NCBI GenBank assembly: GCA_963773905.1
Contig: CAVZDB010000005.1
Span: forward strand, 181,624 to 245,623
From: an uncultured Acidobacteriota bacterium
Lineage (GTDB): Bacteria > Acidobacteriota > Thermoanaerobaculia > UBA5066 > Gp7-AA6
DNA length: 64,000 nt
Direction: 5' to 3'
Below, piece after piece: positions 7,282-41,629 of the stretch. Numbering within the stretch: position 1 is the stretch's first letter; each line of letters starts with the position of its first letter. The notes under the pieces were generated by a model. The model worked only from the letters and a program-made list of their open reading frames with translations, was not told the DNA's origin and ran no database searches. Position numbers and translations under genes: made by a program.

Positions 7282-8049
7282 CTACCACCCCTTCGCGGGG
7301 CGGAAGATCGCGAAGACCGCTCCCTGCGGGTCCGCGAGCACGGAGAAGCGGCCCATGTCCGGGATGTTGGTCGGCGGGACGATCGTCTTCCCGCCGCTCT
7401 TCTCCGCCTTCGCGGCGGTCGCGTCGACGTCGTCGGCCGCGAAGTAGACGAGCCAGCTCGGCGGCATGGGCCCCCACTCCTCGGGGATCTTCATCATGCC
7501 GCCGATCGACGTGTCGTTCTTCTGCCACTCCGTGTACTCGGGGCTGACCTTCGCGCCCCAGCCGAAGAGGCCCGTGTAGAACTTCTGCGCGCTCACCGTG
7601 TCGTTCGTGTCGAGCTCGGCCCAGCACAGCGCGCCCGGCTCGTTCACGACCTGGGCGCCGATGTGCTGCTTCGCCTGCCAGAGGCAGATCGTCCCGCCCT
7701 GCGGATCCTGGACGACCGCCATCCGGCCGTACTCCATGACGTCGAAGGCTTCCGCGACGACCTTGCCGCCGAGGTCCTTCGCCTTCTTCGCGGACGCGTC
7801 GGCGGAGGCAACGGTCACGTACGTGTTCCAGTGCGGCGGGATGTTCGTCTGCTTCGGGTCCTTGTACAGCGCGCCGACGCTTCGGCCGCCCTTCTTGAGC
7901 GTGGTGTAGACCATGTCCGGACCCGCCGGTGAATCCTCGAACCCCCAGCCGAAGAGGCCCGCGTAAAAGGTCTTGGCCGCGGCGGGGTCGCTCGTCGCGA
8001 GTTCGGCCCAGCTGAAGCTTCCGGGATCGTGCTTGTCGACCTGAGTCAT
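7282..8049 (-). CDS. Two-domain VOC/glyoxalase family protein
   Basis: Repeated WAELxT...FYxGLFGW and GRxAVxxDPQG motifs; ATG at 8049. Confidence 0.9.
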   Translation of the reverse strand: MTQVDKHDPGSFSWAELATSDPAAAKTFYAGLFGWGFEDSPAGPDMVYTTLKKGGRSVGALYKDPKQTNIPPHWNTYVTVASADASAKKAKDLGGKVVAEAFDVMEYGRMAVVQDPQGGTICLWQAKQHIGAQVVNEPGALCWAELDTNDTVSAQKFYTGLFGWGAKVSPEYTEWQKNDTSIGGMMKIPEEWGPMPPSWLVYFAADDVDATAAKAEKSGGKTIVPPTNIPDMGRFSVLADPQGAVFAIFRPAKGW

Positions 8050-8343
8050 GCAGAGTCCTCCTGAGCGGACGTACGGTTGAACGGGGACGAGGGTTTCCGG
8101 TCGAGAGCGCCTCAATCCACTCCCCGGCGGCAAAGGTCTTCTGGTCTGACCCCAGTCCCTGGCCGTTTGAGTTTCTGATGAATCGCTGATCGAAATCCAG
8201 ATTGCGCGTGTCGACTCTCGCGGCGTACACCCGTGGTTGGGGTTCCGAAGGGGTTGGCCATGAAGGCATCACGAAGGGTCGAAGATTGGGACGGACGCCT
8301 CGACGCACCTGGCATAGTCTCGATCCTCCCGAGGAGGCCCGTC

Positions 8344-21012: not shown

Positions 21013-21931
21013 CTACGATCGACGACCGCCGAACTCATCCGCGTGAAGCGACACAAATTCCCGGACGCTCATCGCCGGCCGGCCGGTCACCCGCTCCACG
21101 CCGTCCGCCAGCCGGTCATACCGACCCGCCCGGTTCAACTCGGCCATCGTCACCAGATGCCGGGTCAGGTGCTCCGGCAACCCCGCCTTTTTCAGCTCCC
21201 GTTCCCAATCCTCGGGGGGGATGTCCGCGTACGTGACCTCGCGGTTCAGCGCGTCCGAGTATTCCCGGGCGACCCCGTGCATGTCCTGCGACCGCGGGCC
21301 GGTGAGTTCGTAGATCCGGCCCAGGTGCGGCCCAGGGTCGGCGAGGACGGCAGCGACTACCCGAGCGACATCGGCCGCGGCAACCGGAGATGGTCTTGCC
21401 CCGCCCGAACGGCAGTTCGATGCGGCCTCGGTCGCGGACGCTCGGACCGGTGAGCGGGAGGAAGAAGCCCTCCAGGAAGACCGTCGGCCGGATGGTGACG
21501 ACCGGCAGGCCGGACCACGCGAGCGCCTGCTCGCTGAGCCAGTGCTGCCGCTGCTGCGGGCTCGGGGTGGTGTTCTGGATGCTCATCTGGGAGACGGTCA
21601 TCTGGGACATGTTGACCAGGGCGTCCACCCCGACTTCCCGGGCGACCGCCGCCATGGTCACGGTCGCCTCCAGGTACCCGGCGGACACGGACATGCCGAA
21701 GTAGACCCGCCGACAGCCGCTGACGACCCGATAGACGTCGGCCGGTTCGAGCAGGTCTCCGACCACCACCTCGGCGCCGGCGGCCCGCAAGGCCGCCGCC
21801 CGGTCGTCCTCGCGGCGGACCATGGCGCGAACCGGAAGCCCGCGATCGAGGAGCAGGCCGGTCACGGTTCGCCCGACCGCCCCGAGTTGACCGGCTGCCC
21901 CGGTTACGAGGATCGATCCGTCATCGGCCAT
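21013..21931 (-). CDS. NmrA-like NAD(P)H-binding protein, frameshift near 21385
   Basis: ILVTGAAGQLG, IRPTVFLE and GVERVTGRPAMSVREFV across two frames. Confidence 0.85.
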
Positions 21932-21952
21932 AGGACGATTCCTTTGGGCCTT

Positions 21953-21999
21953 GGGGTCAACGCTGAAAAACTGAATTCAGGGATTCAGCATTTGAACCC
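21953..21999. repeat. GGGGTCA-family inverted dimer (GGGGTCAACGCTGAA variant)
   Basis: ggggtcaacgctgaa...ttcagcatttgaaccc; similar copies at 26969 and 31118. Confidence 0.85.
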
Positions 22000-22021
22000 A
22001 TTCCTGTTTGGGGTCTACCGT

Positions 22022-22291
22022 CTACCGGCGTTTTCCGGTCGCGGGGGACTTGGCCTTCCTGGGCTGGGAGGCCGCTGCCTTCTCGACCGCCTTGGTGAGA
22101 CTCTCGGCGAGCTTCTGCGAGTCCTTGCTGGCACGGCCGAGCTCGCCCGCCGGAGCGGTCTCGCGCTTCCCGAGCACCCACTCCAGGGCGTAGGTCATCG
22201 CAGCGCCTTCCGCGATGTAGAAGCCGCTGAGCTCCTTGACGCGTTCGCGGATGGCCGACACCTGGCTCTTGATCTCGTTTTCGGATTTCAC
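22022..22291 (-). CDS. Small hypothetical protein, cassette A copy 1
   Basis: Near-identical to 27032-27310 at DNA and protein level. Confidence 0.75.
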   Translation of the reverse strand: MKSENEIKSQVSAIRERVKELSGFYIAEGAAMTYALEWVLGKRETAPAGELGRASKDSQKLAESLTKAVEKAAASQPRKAKSPATGKRR

Positions 22292-22326
22292 GGCAGGATC
22301 CTGACATAGGCGCGAGGCCCAGGGCA

Positions 22327-26770: not shown

Positions 26771-26968
26771 GTGCGCAGTCAATGCGCTGGCCACGTCTCT
26801 GTGATCTTCACGAAGCGACCTCGCGAGGGCGTCTGACCCGTGCACGTCGCCAACGTGCTTTCAACCAGTGTTTCGATGCCCTTCGCCACAGCCATGGCCG
26901 ACAGCATCACCCGGGATCAGACGGGTGGCTTCCATTGCAAAGGCCTCCGTTTGATCTGGTCGCGGCCT

Positions 26969-27016
26969 GGGGGTGAACGCTAAAAAGCTGAATTCAGGGG
27001 TTCAGCGTTTGAACCC
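26969..27016. repeat. GGGGTCA-family inverted dimer (AACGCTGAA variant)
   Basis: gggggtgaacgctaaaaagctgaattcaggggttcagcgtttgaaccc. Confidence 0.8.
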
Positions 27017-27031
27017 ATTCCTGTTCGGAGC

Positions 27032-27310
27032 CTACCGGCGTTTTCCGGCCGCGGGGGACTTGGCCTTTTTGGCCTTCTTGGCCTGGGAGGCCGCCGCCTT
27101 CTCGACCGCCTTGGTGAGACTCTCGACGAGCTTCTGCGAGTCCTTGCTGGCGCGGCCGAGCTCGCCCGCCGGAGCGGTCTCGCGCTTCCCGAGCACCCAC
27201 TCCAGGGCGTAGGTCATCGCGGCGCCTTCCGCGATGTAGAAGCCGCTGAGCTCCTTGACGCGCTCGCGGAGGGCCGACACCTGACCCTTGATCTCGGTCT
27301 CGGATTTCAC
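27032..27310 (-). CDS. Small hypothetical protein, cassette A copy 2
   Basis: MKSETEIKGQVSALRERVKELSGFYIAEGAAMTYALEWVLG. Confidence 0.75.
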   Translation of the reverse strand: MKSETEIKGQVSALRERVKELSGFYIAEGAAMTYALEWVLGKRETAPAGELGRASKDSQKLVESLTKAVEKAAASQAKKAKKAKSPAAGKRR

Positions 27311-27351
27311 GGCAGGATCCTGACACAGTCAGGACGGACGCCAGCTAGCCC

Positions 27352-29123: not shown

Positions 29124-29143
29124 GTGGTCCTCCTTGGGGAGTC

Positions 29144-29548
29144 CTACTTCTTCAGGCTCGTCTTCCAGGTGCCGGTGTCGACGACCTTGCCCTTGTACAA
29201 CGTCTCGAACTTTCCCGAGAACGTCGGGCCGGCCTTCGTGCCCGTGATCCGGGAAGAGGCCTTGTGGCCCTTGACCTCGAAGTCGTAGGCGGCCTCGATG
29301 GAGTCGCCCTTCACGACGAGCGAGGTCACGGGGGATTTCGTTGGCTGCCCGTCCAGCACGGCGATGACTTCGCCGGTCCAGTTGCCGCCTGGGCCCGGGC
29401 TAAAAGTGAGTTGATAGCCGCCGCTCTTGCCTGCCTTATTGACGTATTCGCCGACGTACGTTCCGGCGATATCTTCCTCGGCGCGCACTACGACGGACAT
29501 CAGAATCAGGGCCGCGAGGGTAAGCACAATCGCAAGGTTTCGTCTCAT
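29144..29548 (-). CDS. Secreted hypothetical protein, cassette B copy 1
   Basis: Signal peptide; near-identical to 32939-33337. Confidence 0.75.
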   Translation of the reverse strand: MRRNLAIVLTLAALILMSVVVRAEEDIAGTYVGEYVNKAGKSGGYQLTFSPGPGGNWTGEVIAVLDGQPTKSPVTSLVVKGDSIEAAYDFEVKGHKASSRITGTKAGPTFSGKFETLYKGKVVDTGTWKTSLKK

Positions 29549-29633
29549 GGAGGCAAAGTTACCATCACGGCGAGATGTGAATGAGATGGCGCCGATGACA
29601 GGACTTGAACTGGTGAGCTGCGTGCGGGCGAAA

Positions 29634-29909
29634 TCAGAAATCAGCCGATCGGCGGAAGGGAACGAGTCGGCGGATCCGGCGGTCCCGCAAGTACAGGCCG
29701 CCCCAGGCGAGAATTCCTACGGCCAACGGAATCGCCGCGCGCGCCGCGTCGCCAACCCGCAAATGCGCAGCCACCGCGCCGCCGAGATAGCCAGTCATCA
29801 GGATTGCGGCGAGGACAGACGTTTGCGGGACGAGGTAGAGCACCACCAGGGCGCATTCCGCAATGACGATCGGGAGGATGGCCGATTCGGGATAGCCATA
29901 GCCCGTCAC
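29634..29909 (-). pseudogene. N-terminally truncated DoxX family gene
   Basis: LYLVPQTSVLAAILMTGYLGGAVAAHLRVG is the C-terminal half of DoxX; the 5' part is absent beyond the site at 29916. Confidence 0.7.
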
Positions 29910-29924
29910 GATTTCGGTCAGTCT

Positions 29925-31089
29925 CGATCGCCCGCCTGGAAGTTAGTTCTCCTTGTTCTGGCTGAAGTTGACCTGGTACGGCTTCCCGCTCTGCGCGATG
30001 GCGAGGAGGCGGTGGCAGAGCTTGCGCGAGACGGCCACGATGGCGCGCTTCCCGCCGCGGCGAGCCTTAATCCTGTCGTAGAAGCGCCGCATCTCCGGGT
30101 CCTTGCCGATCAGGATCCAGGAGCTCTCCACGAGGACGCTGCGAACGACCGGGTTACCCTGGCGCGTGATGTGACCGTGGCGGATGCGCTCGCCGCTGGA
30201 ATGCTCGGAGGGAGTCAGGCCGGCGTAGGAGCTCAATGCCTCGCCGTCGGGGAAGCGGGAGAAGTCCACGATCTCCACGACCAGCGTAAGCGCCGTCAGC
30301 CAGCCGATCCCAGGAATGGTCGACAGCAGCTCCACCATCGGCGCGTAGTCTTCGGACCGGGTCATCTGGCGCAGCTCCTTTGTCAACGCATCCACGCGGG
30401 CGTCCAGATCGAAATAGATACCGCGCAGCTCCTCGAGCACGCGATCGAGCGAGCGATCGTCAAGCTTCAGCCCGCGCAGCCACGCCTCGAAGTCCCCGCT
30501 CCAGTGCGCGCCCGCCTCTTCGGGAATCTCGATGTCGTAGGTTAAAAAGAACGACTTGATCCGCACCATCGCCGCGCAGCGCTCCCGCTGCACCCGGTGG
30601 CGCTGGCGAACCAGCTCGCGATCTGCACGCTGCCGCACTTCCGGAACGAAGATCGGCCTCAGCAACCCGGCCTCCAGAGTCCGCGCCAGCTTAAGCCCGT
30701 CCCGACGATCCGTCTTCACCCGGTTGCCGATCTCCCCAGGCACGTGCGCCGCGGACACCACCATCGAATCCACCTGGCGCAATCGCAGCCAGTCGTGTAG
30801 CCAGTATCCAAACGGCCCCGTCTCGTACGCGCTGTGGACCCGACATCCCTCAAACCGAGCTAGCAGCCCGTTAAGCGCCTCTCGCCTAGGAGGGAAGCTC
30901 GCACTCAGCAGCGTCTCGCCTCCAGACCGAGCCGTCACGTGCCAGGACGTCTTCGAAATATCCAGCCCCAGAAACACCTCGGATCCGCTCGCCAACCTCA
31001 CTCCATCGCGCATGGCCCTCCTCCTCACCCTCAGAGTGCCACGCAAGCCTCCCTTCCTCCGCCCGTCAGCCACGGCCCTAACATAGCGG
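29925..31089 (-). mobile_element. IS110-family insertion sequence inserted within a GGGGTCA-family site
   Basis: Flanks ggtcagtct (29916-29924) and tgattctttgattttt (from 31091) rejoin into ggtcagtcttgattct, matching the reverse complement of the intact site at 36101-36121; no TIR or long TSD. Confidence 0.8.
29943..31013 (-). CDS. IS110 family transposase/recombinase (DEDD RuvC-like plus Tnp20 domain)
   Basis: FLGLDISK, YETGPFG, VKTDRRDG, TIPGIG and YAGLTPSEHSSG; GAGGAGG RBS before ATG 31013. Confidence 0.95.
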   Translation of the reverse strand: MRDGVRLASGSEVFLGLDISKTSWHVTARSGGETLLSASFPPRREALNGLLARFEGCRVHSAYETGPFGYWLHDWLRLRQVDSMVVSAAHVPGEIGNRVKTDRRDGLKLARTLEAGLLRPIFVPEVRQRADRELVRQRHRVQRERCAAMVRIKSFFLTYDIEIPEEAGAHWSGDFEAWLRGLKLDDRSLDRVLEELRGIYFDLDARVDALTKELRQMTRSEDYAPMVELLSTIPGIGWLTALTLVVEIVDFSRFPDGEALSSYAGLTPSEHSSGERIRHGHITRQGNPVVRSVLVESSWILIGKDPEMRRFYDRIKARRGGKRAIVAVSRKLCHRLLAIAQSGKPYQVNFSQNKEN

Positions 31090-31117
31090 TTGATTCTTTG
31101 ATTTTTCGGCGGGTCTT

Positions 31118-31276
31118 GGGGTCAACGCTGAAAGGCTGAATCCAGGGATTCAGCGTGAACCCCATTCCTGCCCCATCGAATCAGATTCAGGGCTGACCCC
31201 AGCTAGCCCCAACCCGACAGCCGTGGTCAGCAGCGAATTCAACGTGGCGAACAATCAAAGAATCGGCACTGACCAC
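31118..31276. repeat. Cluster of GGGGTCA-family sites
   Basis: Dimer 31118-31163, then gaatcagattcagggctgacccc 31178-31200, then degenerate aatcaaagaatcggcactgacc 31253-31274. Confidence 0.8.
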
Positions 31277-31318
31277 TTAACGCTCCTCTCGCACGAGAGT
31301 CTCGAACTCGGCGTTCCG

Positions 31319-32747
31319 CTACCTCCTTGACCCCGGTCGACTAACAATGTGCGTGCAACGGAAACAGCCAATCCTGAAGTAGAGCGTGTTCGACACGATG
31401 GCCCCGGGGTTCTGCAAGCACTCGACGCTCGCTTCGCCCAGCGCACTCAATTCTGAAGCCGATACTTCAGTCGTGATCAGGTTCTCGGACTGGACCGTTG
31501 ACGGCCGCGGTTGGCCCCGCCACAGGACGACAGCGCCTGGAGCATGTGATTTCCCAAAACGTAAAGCGTTGTTGCCGGAGATCTCAACCGGACGTCGGTT
31601 GGGTCGAGATTGATGATCTTGGCTTCACGGCTTGGTAACGCAATGCCGTACCCCATCCGATTCAGGGCGTAGAGGTCCCACCCGTAATGTTGTCGTGTTC
31701 GCCACTCGCAAGAGTTGGGTCCATGATTCCAACGTAATAGCCGAATAGTTCATTCGCTTTCCAATGGCTTGCCTGTTGATGATCGCCACCGGAGCCATCA
31801 GGGCGGCCGGTCGATAGGGGGGCGAAACTCCCCTGGCTCCAGTAATCGTGGTCGCCGCCCGACGAGAGAACTCGATCTTCAGATGCGAAGGTAACTGGGC
31901 CCGGCCGGAAACGGTTGAAGTCCCACACGGACGCGACGAGGGGCAAACTCGGATCCAGCTCGGTGAATCCGACTGCCGACAGGAAACCCAAGGCGTGGCC
32001 GATTTCGTGCGTCGCGGTGCTAGAGAAGTCTGTCAAGAAGGGCTCGATACCGTCCGTAGGATCGAAATCCCAGGAAAATGCAGAATTGAAGCCGATTTGG
32101 GATGCTGGATCTGATGATGTCGCCGCTCGCAAGAGTCCGAGCTCCCGCATGACGGGCGACGGCGCCACCACGAGACTCACCGGGCCGATATCCGTCGGCA
32201 GACTTCCATGCGGCAGCGATTGGATTTCTGAGCTCGACCTGTAGAGGCTCGTTAACGCGGACCTAACGTCGGAGTAGTACTCGACGTCCACATCGGGTGA
32301 AGTTGAACCTAGGGTTTCCGGGTCCGAAAACGGCTCGCCAAATGCCGCCGGCCCGAAATCAACGTCGATGTACACGGTCATCGCGTTGGTTAGCAGGCTC
32401 TCCCAAAGGTCGGCTGCACGAATAAAGGCCGCCTTCGCCTCGGGATAACGCTCGAGTTGAGCGGTGCCGCGCAGGACGATCTTTAGGCCCGCTGCAACTT
32501 CGGAGATGGCCTCTCCTGATTCCGGCAAATGATTAATTTGATTCAGCTCGAGCCGGCTTCCGGCACGCCTTTCTATATCGCCTCGTCCAGAGAGTTCTGC
32601 TTCGCACCTGACCCGCCCCTCGCCTTTTCGAAGAACAAAGCGGATATCTCGGAACCCTCTTGAAGAGTAGTCCTCGCCAAAGGCGGCCCCAGTAAGGGCA
32701 ACGAAAGCGATCGCGGTCACGATCCACCGGCGTCGTTGCATACACAC
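31319..32747 (-). CDS. Secreted zinc metalloprotease (HEXXH) with probable C-terminal Ig-like domain, frameshifted near 31680 and 31550
   Basis: HEIGHALG, QASHWK and IMDPT; other frames continue to SNTLYFRIGCFRCTHIVSRPGSRR*; visibly lower GC. Confidence 0.75.
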
Positions 32748-32890: not shown

Positions 32891-32938
32891 AATTAGCCCA
32901 AGAACAACCCACCCTGTGCTGCTCTCGACCCGTGAGTC

Positions 32939-33337
32939 CTACTTCTTCAGACTCGTCTTCCAGGTGCCGGTGTCGACGACCTTGCCCTTGTACAACGTCT
33001 CGAACTTTCCCGAGAACGTCGGGCCGGCCTTCGTGCTCGTGATCCGGGAAGAGGCCTTGTGGCCCTTGACCTCGAAGTCGTAGGCGGCCTCGATGGAGTC
33101 GCCCTTCACGGCGAGCGAGGTCATGGGGGATTTCGTTGGCTGCCCATCCAGCACGGCGATGACTTCGCCGGTCCAGTGGCCGCCTGGGCCCGGGGTGAAA
33201 GTGAGTTGATAGCCGCCGCTCTTGCCTGCCTTGTTGACCTACTCGCCGACGTACGTTCCGGCGATGTCTTCCTCGGCGAGCGCTGCGACGGACATCAGCA
33301 TCAGTGCCGACAGGGCAAATGCAAGGTTTCGTCTCAT
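32939..33337 (-). pseudogene. Cassette B copy 2 with an in-frame TAG
   Basis: Colinear with 29144-29548; the Tyr codon TAC is TAG at 33239-33241. Confidence 0.75.
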
Positions 33338-33939: not shown

Positions 33940-35006
33940 GGGGTCAATCGTGTATTCCTGTATTTCCCGCTTCGAAGAGGCAAGCCAGGCGGTCGACGTG
34001 ACCGCGAACTGAGTCGTCTCGCGTCATCAACTTCTCGAGCCTGGTCAGACCGCGGTGAAACGTCGACTCCTCGCGCCTGAAGCATCTCGCCATCCGGGCA
34101 ATCGAGAATCCCTCACGACAACCGAGATACGCAGCGATCAGCCGGGTCCGTGAGGCCGCCGAAGACTTTCCGGCCCGCCTCAGCTCTTCCAGGGAGAAGC
34201 CCTCCGCCTTGGCGACCGCATCGGCCAGGCTCTCAGGGGTCCACCCGCTGGGAAGTCGGACGGTCTCCCCCACGATCGCCATGGATCGCTGGACGAACTC
34301 CGGATCTCCCTTGACTGGGAAGCCGCCGGCGACGTCGTCGTAGGACTGCTGGTCGCGGTCTCCCATCATTCGCCGGTAGGCCGCCGCGGCCCCCCTCCGA
34401 TCCGACGCGAGTCGCCCCATCGCGACGTCCAGATCCAGCCAGTCTGGGCCACGTCCGCTTCGGTAGTAGCGATCGCTCGACCACGAGTACGACTCGGGCC
34501 GACTCACCATCCCGGCTCGGACCGGGTTGAGGTGGATGTATCGAAGCAGCGCGAAGAGGTACTTCTCATCTTGAATGAGAAAGGCCTTGTACCGCCCTTG
34601 GAAGAGATGGCCCGATCGCCGGTGCTTCGAGTTGAAACGCTGTGCGTAGAACGAATGCAGCGCCAGCATCGCGCGAGAGAGCGGAAACGGTCCACGCTCC
34701 ACCGCCACGTGAATGTGGTTGCTCATCAGGCAGTACGCCAGGATACGAAGCCGGAATCTCTCCCGGCACTCCGCAAGCCGCTCGAGGTAGATCTCACGAT
34801 CCCGGTCGTCGCGAAAGATGGCCTTGCGTTCGTTGCCGCGGGCAATCACATGGTAGACCGCCCCGGTGAGCTCAACCCGAAACGGCCGCGCCAACGACAC
34901 CTCCGCAGACACCGAGATCCTCTCCCTGCGTCTATCTAAGGTTGTCGCGAACGGTCACGCCCGCGGCGCGGCGAGCGAAGAATTACAGGAATACACGATT
35001 GACCCC
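33940..35006 (-). mobile_element. RAYT-like Y1 transposase unit bounded by perfect 23-bp inverted repeats
   Basis: ggggtcaatcgtgtattcctgta (33940-33962) and tacaggaatacacgattgacccc (34984-35006). Confidence 0.85.
33944..34894 (-). CDS. REP-associated tyrosine transposase-like Y1 HUH nuclease with C-terminal DnaA-C-like helical domain
   Basis: ARPFRVE..GAVYHVIARGNERKAIF, HUH motif YCLMSNHIH, GHLFQGRYKA, catalytic RYIHLNPVRAG and YSWSS; the stop codon lies in the left IR. Confidence 0.9.
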   Translation of the reverse strand: MARPFRVELTGAVYHVIARGNERKAIFRDDRDREIYLERLAECRERFRLRILAYCLMSNHIHVAVERGPFPLSRAMLALHSFYAQRFNSKHRRSGHLFQGRYKAFLIQDEKYLFALLRYIHLNPVRAGMVSRPESYSWSSDRYYRSGRGPDWLDLDVAMGRLASDRRGAAAAYRRMMGDRDQQSYDDVAGGFPVKGDPEFVQRSMAIVGETVRLPSGWTPESLADAVAKAEGFSLEELRRAGKSSAASRTRLIAAYLGCREGFSIARMARCFRREESTFHRGLTRLEKLMTRDDSVRGHVDRLACLFEAGNTGIHD

Positions 35007-35348: not shown

Positions 35349-35394
35349 GATTAGCCGCCGAGGCCACGCCGGCGGCGCAGCGGCGGGACAAATG

Positions 35395-35412
35395 GGAATA
35401 CACGATTGACCC
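35395..35412 (-). repeat. Further copy of the RAYT terminal repeat
   Basis: ggaatacacgattgaccc, 16 bp from the stop codon at 35428. Confidence 0.85.
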
Positions 35413-36021: not shown

Positions 36022-36121
36022 GTCAGTCCTGATTGTCTGCAGATCGAAAAAGCAAAGAATCAGTACCAACTCCTTTCTCGACCCCATTTCTACCCGGAAA
36101 AGCAAGAATCAAGACTGACCC
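36022..36121. repeat. GGGGTCA-family sites (degenerate dimer)
   Basis: gtcagtcctgatt (36022) ... agcaagaatcaagactgaccc (36101-36121). Confidence 0.75.
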
Positions 36122-36143: not shown

Positions 36144-37058
36144 TCAGCTCTCATCGAAATAATCCGAATCCAGGCGCTTCACTTGATACGTCCGAGCTTG
36201 TGAAACACCAATCTCAAAGTCGATCATGAGTTCGGCCAACCGACGCCCATCGATTAAAGCGACCTTGGGATCGATGTGCTCCACGTAGGCGAGTGCTTCC
36301 GCCGAAAATGACCCGGTCGTGATGAAGACGCCCTTCTTCGCGCGTTTGCCGTGCAGAGCACCCACAAACTTGTGGATTTCGGGGCGGCCCACCGTTCCGT
36401 CCCACCGCTTCGCCTGGAGGTAGACCACGTCGAGGCCAAGCCGATCCTCGCTGATGACGCCATCGATCCCTTCATCCCCCGACTTACCGATAGCCTGTCC
36501 AGCGTCCTTCCGCGAGCCCCCGTAGCCCATCTTCAGCAGCAACTCGACCACCAGTTCCTCGAAGAACGAAGGCGATGCCGCCTTCACGCGGGCGATGACT
36601 TCTGCTGCGAGACCTGCTCTGATCCTTGCGTGGGCCGCCTCAAGGGCTTCTTCCGGTGTTTCAGTTTCCTCTTGCGACGTCGCGCTCATGCCAGGCGTCG
36701 CTTCCTCTTGAGACCGGGCCGTCCTGAACTCGACAAACTCCGGATATCGATCGAGAAACTTGATGTCGACTCGGGTGGGAGGATTCTTGAGGACCTCCCG
36801 ACCTCTCTCGGTCAGCTGGAAGTGGCCGCGTCGCGGTGGAGCTGAGGAGCCCGGCTTGCTGAAGGTAGCTTCTCGCCCAAGCGACGCGATTCGCAAATCT
36901 GGTCTGCCGCCCGCTCGGAAGAAGCTCTTCCTTGTCGTCAGGAGTCAGCTGAACTCAACCGCGAGGGCGTTGGCCGCCGCAGCCAATGAATGGGCTTCGC
37001 CGTCGGCGGCAATTTGTAGGAGGGGCAGCATGAATGATTGGAAGTCAGGCACAGTCAT
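36144..37058 (-). CDS. mrr: Mrr type IV restriction endonuclease, frameshifted at about 36850-36960
   Basis: N-terminal MTVPDFQSFMLPLL and LLPSGRQ; C-terminal FFEELVVELL, SGDEGIDG, YLQAKRW and KGVFITT. Confidence 0.9.
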
Positions 37059-37124
37059 GAGGGCTATTATCTGCTCTCTGAGTGGAGTGGTCGCGCACGC
37101 CCCGCCAACGGTCGCAAGCGACAA

Positions 37125-38811: not shown

Positions 38812-41629
38812 CTAGCTGCATCCTGACGTCGCGCCGCAGTTCATGCACTTGTAGCAGGCCGCGGACCTGACCATGATCGAGCCGCACTCGTGGCACGCGG
38901 GCGCGTCCGTGCTCGTCTCGAAGAGCAGCTTGCTGACGATTTCGCCGCTGGCCTGGCGCGCCGCCACGGTGCGCTCGATGACGGGCACCGGGCCCGTCGA
39001 GCTCGTGTCCCGCGCGATCACGCCCACCGCGTTCTTCTCCTCGGCGCTCATGAACTTGCTCGCCAGCCACTTGAAGATGTAGTCGATCAGCGACTTCGCG
39101 ATCGGGACCTCCGGGTTCTTCGTGAAGCCCGCGGGCTCGAACCGCACGTGGGTGAACTTGTTGACCAGGGCCTCCAGCGGCACGCCGTACTGGAGGGTCA
39201 GCGAGATCGCCGTCGCGAACGCGTCCATGAGGCCCGAGATCGTCGAGCCCTCCTTGGACATCCGCAGGAAGATCTCGCCGGGCTTGCCGTCCTCGAACAG
39301 GCCCACCGTCACGTAGCCCTCGTGGCCCGCGACCGAGAACTTGTGGGTGATCGAGCGGCGCTCGTCGGGGAGCTTGCGGCGGAACGGCGCCGGGACCGGG
39401 GCCGCGGCCTTGCCGACGTACTCGAGCGTGCCGCGGGCGACCGGGGACTTGGTGTCGCTCTTCGAAGCCGCCGTGTTCAGCGGCTGCGTGCGCTTGCAGC
39501 CGTCGCGGTAGATCGCGATGGCCTTCAGGCCCTGCTTCCAGCCTTCCATGTAGACGCCCGCGATCTCCTCGGGCGTGGCGTCCGGCGGCAGGTTGACGGT
39601 CTTGCTGATCGCGCCGGAGAGGAACGGCTGCGTCGCCGCCATCATCTTGACGTGGCCCATGTAGTGGATCGAGCGGGTGCCGTTCAGCGCGCGGAACGCG
39701 CAGTCGAACACCGGCAGGTGCTCCTGCAGGAAGTTCGGCGCGCCCTCGATCGTGCCCTTCTCGTCGACGTAGTCGACAATTTCATTGATTGCGTCGGTGG
39801 AATATCCCAGGCGCTTCAGCGCCAGCGGCACGGTCTGATTGACGATCTTGATCGTCCCGCCGCCCACGAGCTTCTTGTACTTGACGAGCGCGAGGTCCGG
39901 CTCGACGCCGGTCGTGTCGCAATCCATCATGAAGCCGATCGTGCCGGTCGGCGCGAGCACCGTGACCTGGCCGTTCTTGTAGCCGTGCTCCTTGCCGGTC
40001 TCGAGCGCCGCGTCCCACACCGCCTTCTGCGCCTTGTGGAGCTCGGCCGGAACGCCGCGCGCGGGAACCTGCGCGGCGGCGTCGCGGTGCATGCCGATGA
40101 CCTCGAGGAACGCGTCGCGGTTGGGGGCGTAGCCCGTGAAGGGCTCGAGCTCCGCCGCGACCCTGGAGGACTGCAGGTACGCCTCGCCGCACATCAGGGA
40201 AGTAATCGCGGCGGCGTGGGCACGACCTTCGTCTGAGTCATAGGGAACCCCCGCCGCCATCAAGAGAGCCCCGAGGTTCGCGTAGCCGAAGCCGAGCGGG
40301 CGGAACTTGTGCGAGTTCGCCGCGATCGCCGGCGTCGGGTAGGAGCAGTTGTCGACCAGCATCTCCTGCGCCGTGATGACGACGTCGCACGCGTGCTTGA
40401 AGGTCGGCACGTCGAAGCTGCCGTCCTCGGCGTTGAAGAACTTCATGAGGTTCAGCGACGCGAGGTTGCAGGCGGAGTCGTCGACGAACATGTACTCCGA
40501 GCACGGATTGCTCGCGTTGATGCGGTGCGTCGCCTTCACCGGGTTCCAGCGGTTGATGGTCGTGTCGTACTGCATGCCCGGATCGCCGCAGACCCACGCG
40601 GAGTCGGCGATGTCGGCCATGAGCTGACGCGCCTTGAAGGTCTTGTACGGCTGGCCGGTCAGGACCTCCTTGGTCTGCCACTCGCCGTCCTTCTCGACCG
40701 CCTCCATGAACTCGTCGGTGACGCGGATCGGAGTGGTTGGCGTTCTGGTAGAAGATCGACGCGTACGCCTCGCCGTTGAAGCTGCCGTCGTAGCCGGCGT
40801 CGATCAGCGCCCAGGCCTTCTTCTCCTCGTTCGCCTTCGAGCAGATGAACTCCTCGATGTCGGGATGGTCGATGTTCAAGATGACCATCTTGGCCGCGCG
40901 GCGCGTCTTGCCGCCCGACTTGATCGCGCCCGCGAAGGAGTCGAAGCCCTTCATGAACGAGAGCGGGCCGGAGGCGGTGCCGCCGGAGGACAGGCTCTCG
41001 TGCGCGCCGCGAAGGTTCGAGAGGTTGCTGCCCGTGCCCGAGCCGTACTTGAACAGCATGCCCTCGGTCTTGGCGAGCGAGAGGATCGAGTCCATCGAGT
41101 CGCCGCACGAATTGATGAAGCAGGCCGAGCCCTGCGGCTTCGGCTCGATGCCGACGTTGAACCAGACGGGTGAGTTGAAGGAGGCGACCTGGTTGACGAG
41201 GATCGCCGCGAGCTCGTCGTGGAACGCGTCGCGGTCCGCGGCGGTCTTGAAGTAGCCGCCCTTCTCGCCGTAGGCGGTGATGGTTCCGGCCACGCGCTCG
41301 ATGAGCTGCCGCACCGAGCTCTCGCGCTCGGGGGTCCCGACGCGCCCGTGGAAATACTTCTGAACGACGATGTTCGTGGCGGTCTGCGACCAGCTCTTCG
41401 GGACCTCGACGTTCTTCTGCTCGAAGATCGTCTCGCCCTTCTCGGACATGATCGCGGCCGTCCGAAGCTCCCACTCGATCGCGTCGTAGGGCGAAACCGA
41501 GGGGTCCGAATACACGCGTGTGAACGTCAGTCCCTTGAGGCCCCCCTGGCTTCCCTGAAGGGTCTGCCGGGACGTCTCACGCCGTTCCTCCCCGATCGCC
41601 CTCTCCACCCCTTTTTCCGTCGAGCTCAT
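38812..41629 (-). CDS. nrdJ: Class II (adenosylcobalamin-dependent) ribonucleotide reductase, frameshift near 40730
   Basis: FNSPVWFN, SACFI, SGGKTRRAAKM, SNPCSEY, LAPTGTI, YRDG and a C-terminal zinc ribbon (CHEC/CMNC). Confidence 0.95.

Follow-up and report, generated by a model that had tools for sequence, protein, structure and literature searches.

The insertion sequence (IS) found in the window, the whole 64,000-nt stretch of DNA that was analysed here, appears on comparison with its relatives to be a 3'-truncated copy of an IS1111-type element, and its small size would then be the result of damage and not of a minimal design. The transposase gene and the left end are present in full. 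What resembles the right half of an insertion target coincides with the point at which homology to the element gives way to homology to a neighbouring DoxX-like gene. The favoured history, held with modest confidence, is the insertion of a full-length element followed by a single deletion.

The minus strand from 31013 to 29943 encodes an intact, full-length IS110-family transposase of 356 aa plus stop, with the ATG at 31013 and the stop codon at 29943-29945. The protein scored 92 bits against PF02371 and 40.6 bits against PF01548, and matched profile positions 1-343 of 343 in NCBIfam NF033542 ('IS110 family RNA-guided transposase') at 230 bits, with a cut-off of 140. These matches bear out the sequence-only reading, an earlier annotation made from the letters of the window, which had placed an IS110 element here. 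The C-terminal domain additionally matched the structure of the IS621 transposase (8wt6, E = 5e-12). Aligned to seven relatives, the transposase is collinear throughout with no stops and no gaps, and residues D18, E64, D102 and D105, together with serines S272/S273 of the SSG motif, are invariant in all eight sequences; these we take to be the catalytic residues. The predicted combination of a DEDD/RuvC-like N-terminal domain with an IS116/IS110/IS902 C-terminal domain places the protein in the IS110 family. Within the genome from which the window derives (G000; 9 contigs, 81.7% complete) the transposase is present as a single copy and is the sole IS110-family match, and its closest plasmid-borne protein match is 37% identical.

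To define the architecture of an undamaged element, relatives found by scanning genome and metagenome collections were aligned in the transposase orientation. The transposases of the close relatives (L032, L033 and L037-L041) are 84-92% identical to that of the window at the amino acid level, with L003 at 62% and a partial sequence, L034, at 66%; L041, whose match stops at residue 260, was left out of the 3'-end counts. The 5' homology starts at N-CGCTATGTT in 8/8 aligned copies, and the flank that immediately precedes it ends in CAA. Past the stop codon, homology runs for 175-181 nt of non-coding sequence in 6/6 close relatives that reach the 3' end, and for 195 nt in L003, giving a range of 175-195 nt over all seven relatives. 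The region terminates in TTGAC[A/T]-N6-ACATAGGA-N and is followed by a G(A/C/T)CTGAC(C/A) flank. The subterminal repeats, CTATGT on the left and ACATAG on the right, are inverted with respect to each other and both present in each of the seven relatives, and TTGAC[A/T] sits 12 nt from the end of CATAGGA, again in 7/7. Judged by sequence only, a circle junction of the relatives places TTGAC[A/T] and TATGTT on either side of a 16-17-nt spacer, an arrangement in which the TTGACA -35 box would pair with the -10-like TATGTT. The full-length relatives measure 1321-1335 nt between end motifs (~1.32-1.34 kb), and the IS-derived sequence left in the window amounts to about 1165-1170 nt.

A full-length element would be ordered as a left end (CTATGT, TATGTT), the 356-aa DEDD gene, the 3' non-coding region, ACATAG and the TTGACA -35 box. 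The relatives show the IS1111 layout, in which the inverted repeats are subterminal, the left end is short, and the right end is long and encodes the guide. According to the excerpts used of two studies of IS1111 elements, the downstream non-coding region is essential (PMC11187229) and the bridge RNA is located in the right end (PMC11208160); the relatives' inverted repeat, only 6-7 bp long, is at the lower edge of the 7-17 bp given in the latter. These relatives would define a previously unnamed IS1111-type family in Thermoanaerobaculia-like genomes. A further locus, L005 (G025:C1:502148-505324, same genus), comprises the last 59 transposase codons, an entire 3' non-coding region within the same 175-195-nt range and the right end, and is bounded on both sides by the same 18 nt, GATTGACCCCGGTCCTCC; it is a reciprocal remnant of the window's IS family.

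The left end and 5' UTR of the window copy occupy 31014-31089 of the minus strand, where homology to the relatives begins at N-CGCTATGTT. They include the CTATGT repeat (31086 to 31081), the -10-like TATGTT (31085 to 31080) and a GAGGAGG ribosome-binding site. The non-coding lengths reported earlier were reproduced, with 76 nt between 31089 and the ATG and 18-23 nt past the stop. It is at the 3' end that the window copy departs from its relatives. Post-stop sequence follows theirs for 23 nt (29920-29942, minus strand), ending in ...GATCGAGACT and with the target-like ATCGAGACT at its end, and diverges after this point. In this stump, 22/22 nt agree with nt 2-23 of the non-coding region in L037. 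A BLAST search of the whole window genome with the 181-nt L037 region found nt 2-23 only, at 29920-29941, the other 39 matches listed having E of 0.05 or more. When seven non-coding regions were combined into an nhmmer profile, run with --max and filters off, the stump was again the sole match in the window genome (E = 0.34); among the fetched loci this profile recovered each of the eight distinct non-coding regions, with E-values no higher than 1e-40. The window contains no match to ACATAGGA, the string of the right inverted repeat, and a soil-metagenome contig (run X3) with the full non-coding region parts from the window exactly at 29920.

Compared with IS1111 elements, the window copy carries CTATGT at its left end alone in place of repeats at both ends, and the long non-coding region is missing; as to site- and orientation-specific insertion with no duplication of the target, its left flank CAA fits, the right flank being lost or ambiguous. 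The sequence-only reading had set the end of the element at 29925, a position contradicted by the relatives, in which the homology stops at 29920, inside their 3' non-coding region; the true 3' end lay elsewhere. It had also noted that TTCCAG and TATGTT would come to lie 16 bp apart at a circle junction. The hexamer TTCCAG agrees with the -35 consensus at 2/6 positions and is the start of the relatives' 3' region, the real -35 box being in the missing part.

The insertion lies in an array of palindromic repeats. With three mismatches or fewer, the intact-site motif AAGAATCAAGACTGACC occurs seven times in the window against 0.08 expected, and the array site motif is real and non-random. The 13-nt core, with two mismatches or fewer, occurs 70 times genome-wide, 21 of these within 11161-37133 of the window. 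Full array units are imperfect palindromes of 60-100 nt with the form GGGGTCAGTCCTGAT-N-TCTGAT, loop, ATCAGA-N-ATCAGGACTGACCCC, and are interspersed with small ORFs, most of them on the minus strand, in DNA of lower G+C. The surviving left half of the insertion target (31090-31107, minus strand) is the 3' arm of such a palindrome in the transposase orientation and ends in ...GAATCAA. The partner arm, GGGGTCAGCCCTGAATCTGATT in the transposase orientation, is found in the same palindrome at 31178-31200 of the minus strand (repeat family D10), and the palindrome loop holds a nested hairpin repeat at 31112-31185 (repeat family D11) with copies at 21947-22020 and 26964-27037. On its upstream side the element is flanked by a true arm of the clustered palindromic repeat. 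The hairpin copies at 21947 and 26964 are without the same flanking arms, and therefore cannot serve as intact paralogues of the disrupted site. At 21929, the string CATAGGACGATT falls in the start-codon region of a NAD-binding gene and was taken as chance.

Left flanks end in CAA in 9/9 copies, the window included. The right flanks of all six full-length relatives read N-G(A/C/T)CTGAC(C/A), that of the L005 remnant reads GATTGACCCC, and the crossover point is known to within about 2 nt. Alignment of these flanks, in agreement in 6/6 cases on the right and 9/9 on the left, supports the earlier proposal that the element is aimed at the repeat family, with insertion apparently preferred between CAA and GACTGACCC in the clustered palindromic repeat.

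The 175-181-nt 3' region of the relatives most likely encodes the guide (seekRNA/bridge RNA), on evidence that is suggestive but thin. Part of it, GGTCAGTC(G), reads as the reverse complement of GACTGACC, the right flank; this match extends over 8-9 nt in four of the six close relatives and 6 nt in L040, and L033, in which the flank differs, has no right-flank match of 6 nt or more in its 3' region. At about the same place L003, inserted in an unrelated target, carries GCGCGCTG, which matches its own right flank. Just past the stop, ATCGAGACT resembles the joined target ATCAAGACT, with a 9-mer match in L037 alone of the seven tested. Pairing with the left flank is weak, CAA alone being conserved. 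The 3' region also has segments like the element's own ends (CCGAACA and ATAGGA), and the RNA predicted to come from it would include the GGUCAGUCG segment. The top-strand match is found 5' of the bottom-strand match, the order also described for IS1111 seekRNAs in the excerpted text of Siddiquee et al. (PMC11187229).

Folding of the relatives' 3' non-coding region was no better than that of shuffles (z = 0.51), and RNAalifold on seven non-coding regions gave two-sided changes at 5/51 pairs and a covariation term of +1.48, hence no net covariation, with too little diversity for structure; the eight distinct non-coding sequences represent two target classes only. An Rfam search of 29500-31500 returned three matches at chance level, with E-values from 5.9 upwards, none of them to a relevant family. 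A 20-nt non-coding motif, searched with three mismatches in 401 genomes of the class, gave mostly noise, and nhmmer found no further region in the 30 loci fetched.

At the other side of the 3' joint lies a 5'-truncated DoxX-like gene (29634-29920, minus strand; remaining ORF 29634-29909) from which ~45 N-terminal codons are missing. The downstream ORF matches Pfam DoxX_2 at profile positions 28-102 of 103 only, and its orthologues, of about 136 aa in both G046 and G021, are longer by some 45 codons on the upstream side. DNA homology of these orthologues to the window reaches 29920 and goes no further, making this base, the deletion junction, the one base common to IS homology and DoxX homology. 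Scripted removal of 29925-31090 gave a 17-nt identity, taking in bases of the surviving left half-target, with the intact comparator site AAGAATCAAGACTGACC at 36104-36120 of the plus strand, and to this extent the claim that excision restores a site was correct. Given that DoxX homology starts at the same base where IS homology ends, the supposed right half-site is a deletion junction, for which no origin in target DNA is required. Within this sequence, AGACTGACC (29916-29924), AGACT is IS-internal, TGACC corresponds to DoxX codons and the T at 29920 is common to both. In G046 the bases TGACCGAAATC at the junction position encode Val-Thr-Glu-Ile, TGACC there being Val-Thr. The A of TGACC is found in the G046 orthologue alone, with G021 and the X3/X4 contigs reading TGGCC. 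By these alignments AGACTGACC is accounted for in full without target DNA. G021, of the same genus, has a palindromic repeat ~50 nt before the start codon of DoxX, one arm of which has the matching orientation; the ancestor of the window locus would be expected to look like this. The DNA upstream of the window IS showed no synteny with the DoxX loci of G021 and G046.

In the history favoured here, and considered somewhat probable, a full-length IS would have inserted between CAA and GACTGACC in a palindromic repeat arm upstream of the DoxX-like gene, co-oriented with DoxX. One deletion of ~350 nt would have removed the non-coding region from nt 24 onwards, the right end, the right half-target and the first ~45 DoxX codons, a length estimated by summing the right half-site, ~135 nt of DoxX, a spacer of ~50-60 nt and the ~158 nt that the non-coding region and right end would have contributed. 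The remainder would comprise the transposase gene and left end only, with no guide, right end or junction promoter. Two features of the joint count against a single deletion: the GACC that completes the 17-nt target look-alike must be a coincidence, of ~1 in 256, and the left breakpoint must also fall at the end of the target-like segment.

An alternative, possible if rather doubtful, is a two-step history. Here an array repeat already abutted the truncated DoxX gene via TGACC, the IS inserted precisely, and a later internal deletion took place between the GACT at nt 20-23 of the non-coding region and the right-flank GACT. It is only in this history that precise insertion in a complete site, as first proposed, is literally true. 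In its favour, the junction reproduces the target perfectly across 17 nt, microhomology of 4-5 nt is present at each of the postulated joints, the array contains further genes that are decayed or duplicated (Mrr in two ORFs; 97%-identical duplicates), and DoxX sequences from the same genus have TGGCC, not TGACC. However, this history needs two separate rearrangements with end points only a few bases apart, no base of AGACTGACC requires a target origin, and the CC that usually follows GACC (9/13 sites listed) is absent here. Under both the single-deletion and the two-step histories, the window copy is without a guide region, a right end and a junction -35 box.

The coincidence of the breakpoint with the end of the target-like segment, and the perfect target look-alike at the joint, could also be attributed to the RNA-guided recombinase having cut the element itself, with the guide-encoding ATCGAGACT serving as pseudo-end or pseudo-target and a transposase-only module as the product. 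This is very improbable. A reciprocal guide-only remnant, L005, does exist in the same-genus G025, and ISPpu9 is described in the excerpts of PMC12288879 as forming several circle types, but the left joint of L005 shows no CAA-type left target, known bridge recombination joins a target and a donor, not two target-like sites, and the extra module of ISPpu9 is a hitchhiking small-RNA gene and not a guide. If such self-cutting were true, transposase-only and guide-only derivatives would represent a modular route undescribed for elements with a downstream guide.

Collapsed or mis-joined reads at 29920, with an intact real locus, would be a very improbable source of the junction. The genome is metagenome-assembled, in 9 contigs and 81.7% complete, the junction is covered by no independent contig, and other window genes look frameshifted (ribonucleotide reductase, Mrr); a mis-join of IS interior to gene interior over a 1-nt overlap is nevertheless not a typical assembler error, and both sides of the junction are unique in the genome. 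Four soil-metagenome runs were compared, all as small shares and with no RNA run among those listed. Run pieces of 100% identity are confined to 29700-29841, 30440-30590 and 30604-30754, and no read or contig of these runs at 99% identity or above spans 29920, for which the assembly is the one source.

Scarcely credible is the sequence-only reading's own proposal of a complete minimal 1165-bp IS110 with a short guide in the 76-nt 5' leader: the ORF is intact, virtual excision restores a site and, in the excerpts of Siddiquee et al. (PMC11187229), 17 of >350 ISfinder entries are without a long non-coding region, but the leader (31014-31089) folds no better than shuffles (z = 0.57), matches the target on either strand over at most 5 nt (a length that 712/1000 shuffles also reach) and has an unconserved middle, conservation being confined to the end motif and the vicinity of the ribosome-binding site; the right inverted repeat and -35 box are absent, the flank is DoxX coding sequence and there is a single copy only. 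A guide of 76 nt or less working with an IS110-type recombinase would have mattered; the small size here would be the product of deletion.

Elements of the IS1111 group, such as ISPa11 in Pseudomonas aeruginosa REP and ISKpn4 and ISPst6 in attC, target palindromic repeats, as set out in the excerpts of PMC11187229. The relatives described here are like these three elements in their DEDD transposase, subterminal inverted repeats and long downstream non-coding region, and in entering one arm of a repeated palindrome in a fixed orientation. They are unlike them in host, here Thermoanaerobaculia/Acidobacteriota, and the window copy further differs from them in having no non-coding region, right repeat or -35 box.

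The window copy is a natural counterpart of a laboratory deletion of the non-coding region of ISEc11 (bp 1170-1374), for which the excerpts of PMC11187229 report that circles and transposition were lost and were restored by RNA in trans. In both, the transposase gene is kept and the guide region is gone. The ISEc11 construct, however, keeps its right end, whereas the window copy lost the right end and adjacent host DNA, so that RNA in trans would not be enough. Given the additional loss of the right end and the absence of a second copy from the assembly, and by analogy with ISEc11, the window copy is most likely immobile, and would be unable to circularise or transpose unless the RNA and the right end were both supplied. 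ISPpu9/MITEPpu9 of Pseudomonas putida KT2440 is likewise a family in palindromic repeats, having copies with and without a downstream RNA gene (PMC12288879, in excerpt). ISPpu9 belongs to the IS110 group, its bridge RNA is upstream, and its downstream gene ssr9, which it can do without, lies between repeated end boxes; boxes of this kind are absent around the missing part of the window copy.

For scans of IS110 and IS1111 elements, a caution follows. A target-like joint at the end of such an element can come from its own guide-encoding sequence, false joints of this kind being possible because the guide-encoding sequence mimics the target. The new IS1111-type family, with defined ends and a guide-like 3' region, could be tried as a programmable recombinase.

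The array repeats were also considered as integron attC sites. Integron attC sites carry R'' (RYYYAAC) and R' (GTTRRRY) boxes and lie in an array beside intI. The array arms GGGGTCAGTCCTGAT and ATCAGGACTGACCCC have no AAC/GTT boxes, and the genome's IntI (TIGR02249, 431 bits) is on another contig, without array repeats beside it; the missing boxes and the distant intI ruled against this assignment. In five same-genus genomes, arrays and intI are ~0.5 Mb apart (G006, G017) or on other contigs (G021, G025), and the clusters are absent in G019. Between 3 and 13 kb upstream of the integron integrase of the window's genome (G000:C4:571400-581200; L049 5470-15200) lies a different, GC-rich repeat family, made up of CGTAGGGGCGGCCCTCGCGGCCGCCCG palindromes, three tandem 123-nt units and a 19-nt tandem array, with no window array repeats.

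A second assignment considered was to REP/REPIN elements, in which the repeats flank a RAYT (REP-associated tyrosine transposase) gene and are dispersed in many copies over the genome. The genome's only Y1 transposase, a RAYT, lies inside the array at 33944-34912 of the window (minus strand; NCBIfam REP_Tyr_transpos NF047646, 86 bits, cut-off 80). Inverted GGGGTCAATCGTGTATTCC repeats lie on its flanks, at 33940-33970, 34980-35006 and 35383-35412. GGGGTCAATCGTGTATTCC and the array repeats have a common head, GGGGTCA(A/G)TC, the first 10 nt being nearly equal, and the right-flank motif of the IS family is the reverse complement of this head. The array repeats are few and clustered, not dispersed, with 8/11 exact 10-mers in 18 kb, against 26 expected by composition. 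The corresponding repeat cluster of the same-genus G025 (C5:2247-9993; L024) contains a distant IS110-family gene (28% identity) at 7346-8332, and repeat clusters of this type may attract several IS110-type elements.

Several other features of the array and its surroundings were recorded. Near-identical duplicates occur in the array at 29139-29438 and 32934-33233 (97%) and at 22050-22309 and 27069-27328 (95%), and BNR/sortilin-like paralogous genes of 72-82% identity, at 8.2-10.4 kb and 22.5-24.6 kb, lie 14.19 kb apart. An Mrr-type restriction endonuclease gene at 36144-37124 (minus strand), adjoining the intact site 36104-36120, is divided between an N-terminal domain ORF (36945-37124) and a catalytic domain (36144-36896), and is probably disrupted. 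A class II ribonucleotide reductase at 38812-41629 (minus strand) is represented by two overlapping ORFs in different frames, 40238-41629 and 38812-40707, a split that could reflect a frameshift, a pseudogene or an assembly error.
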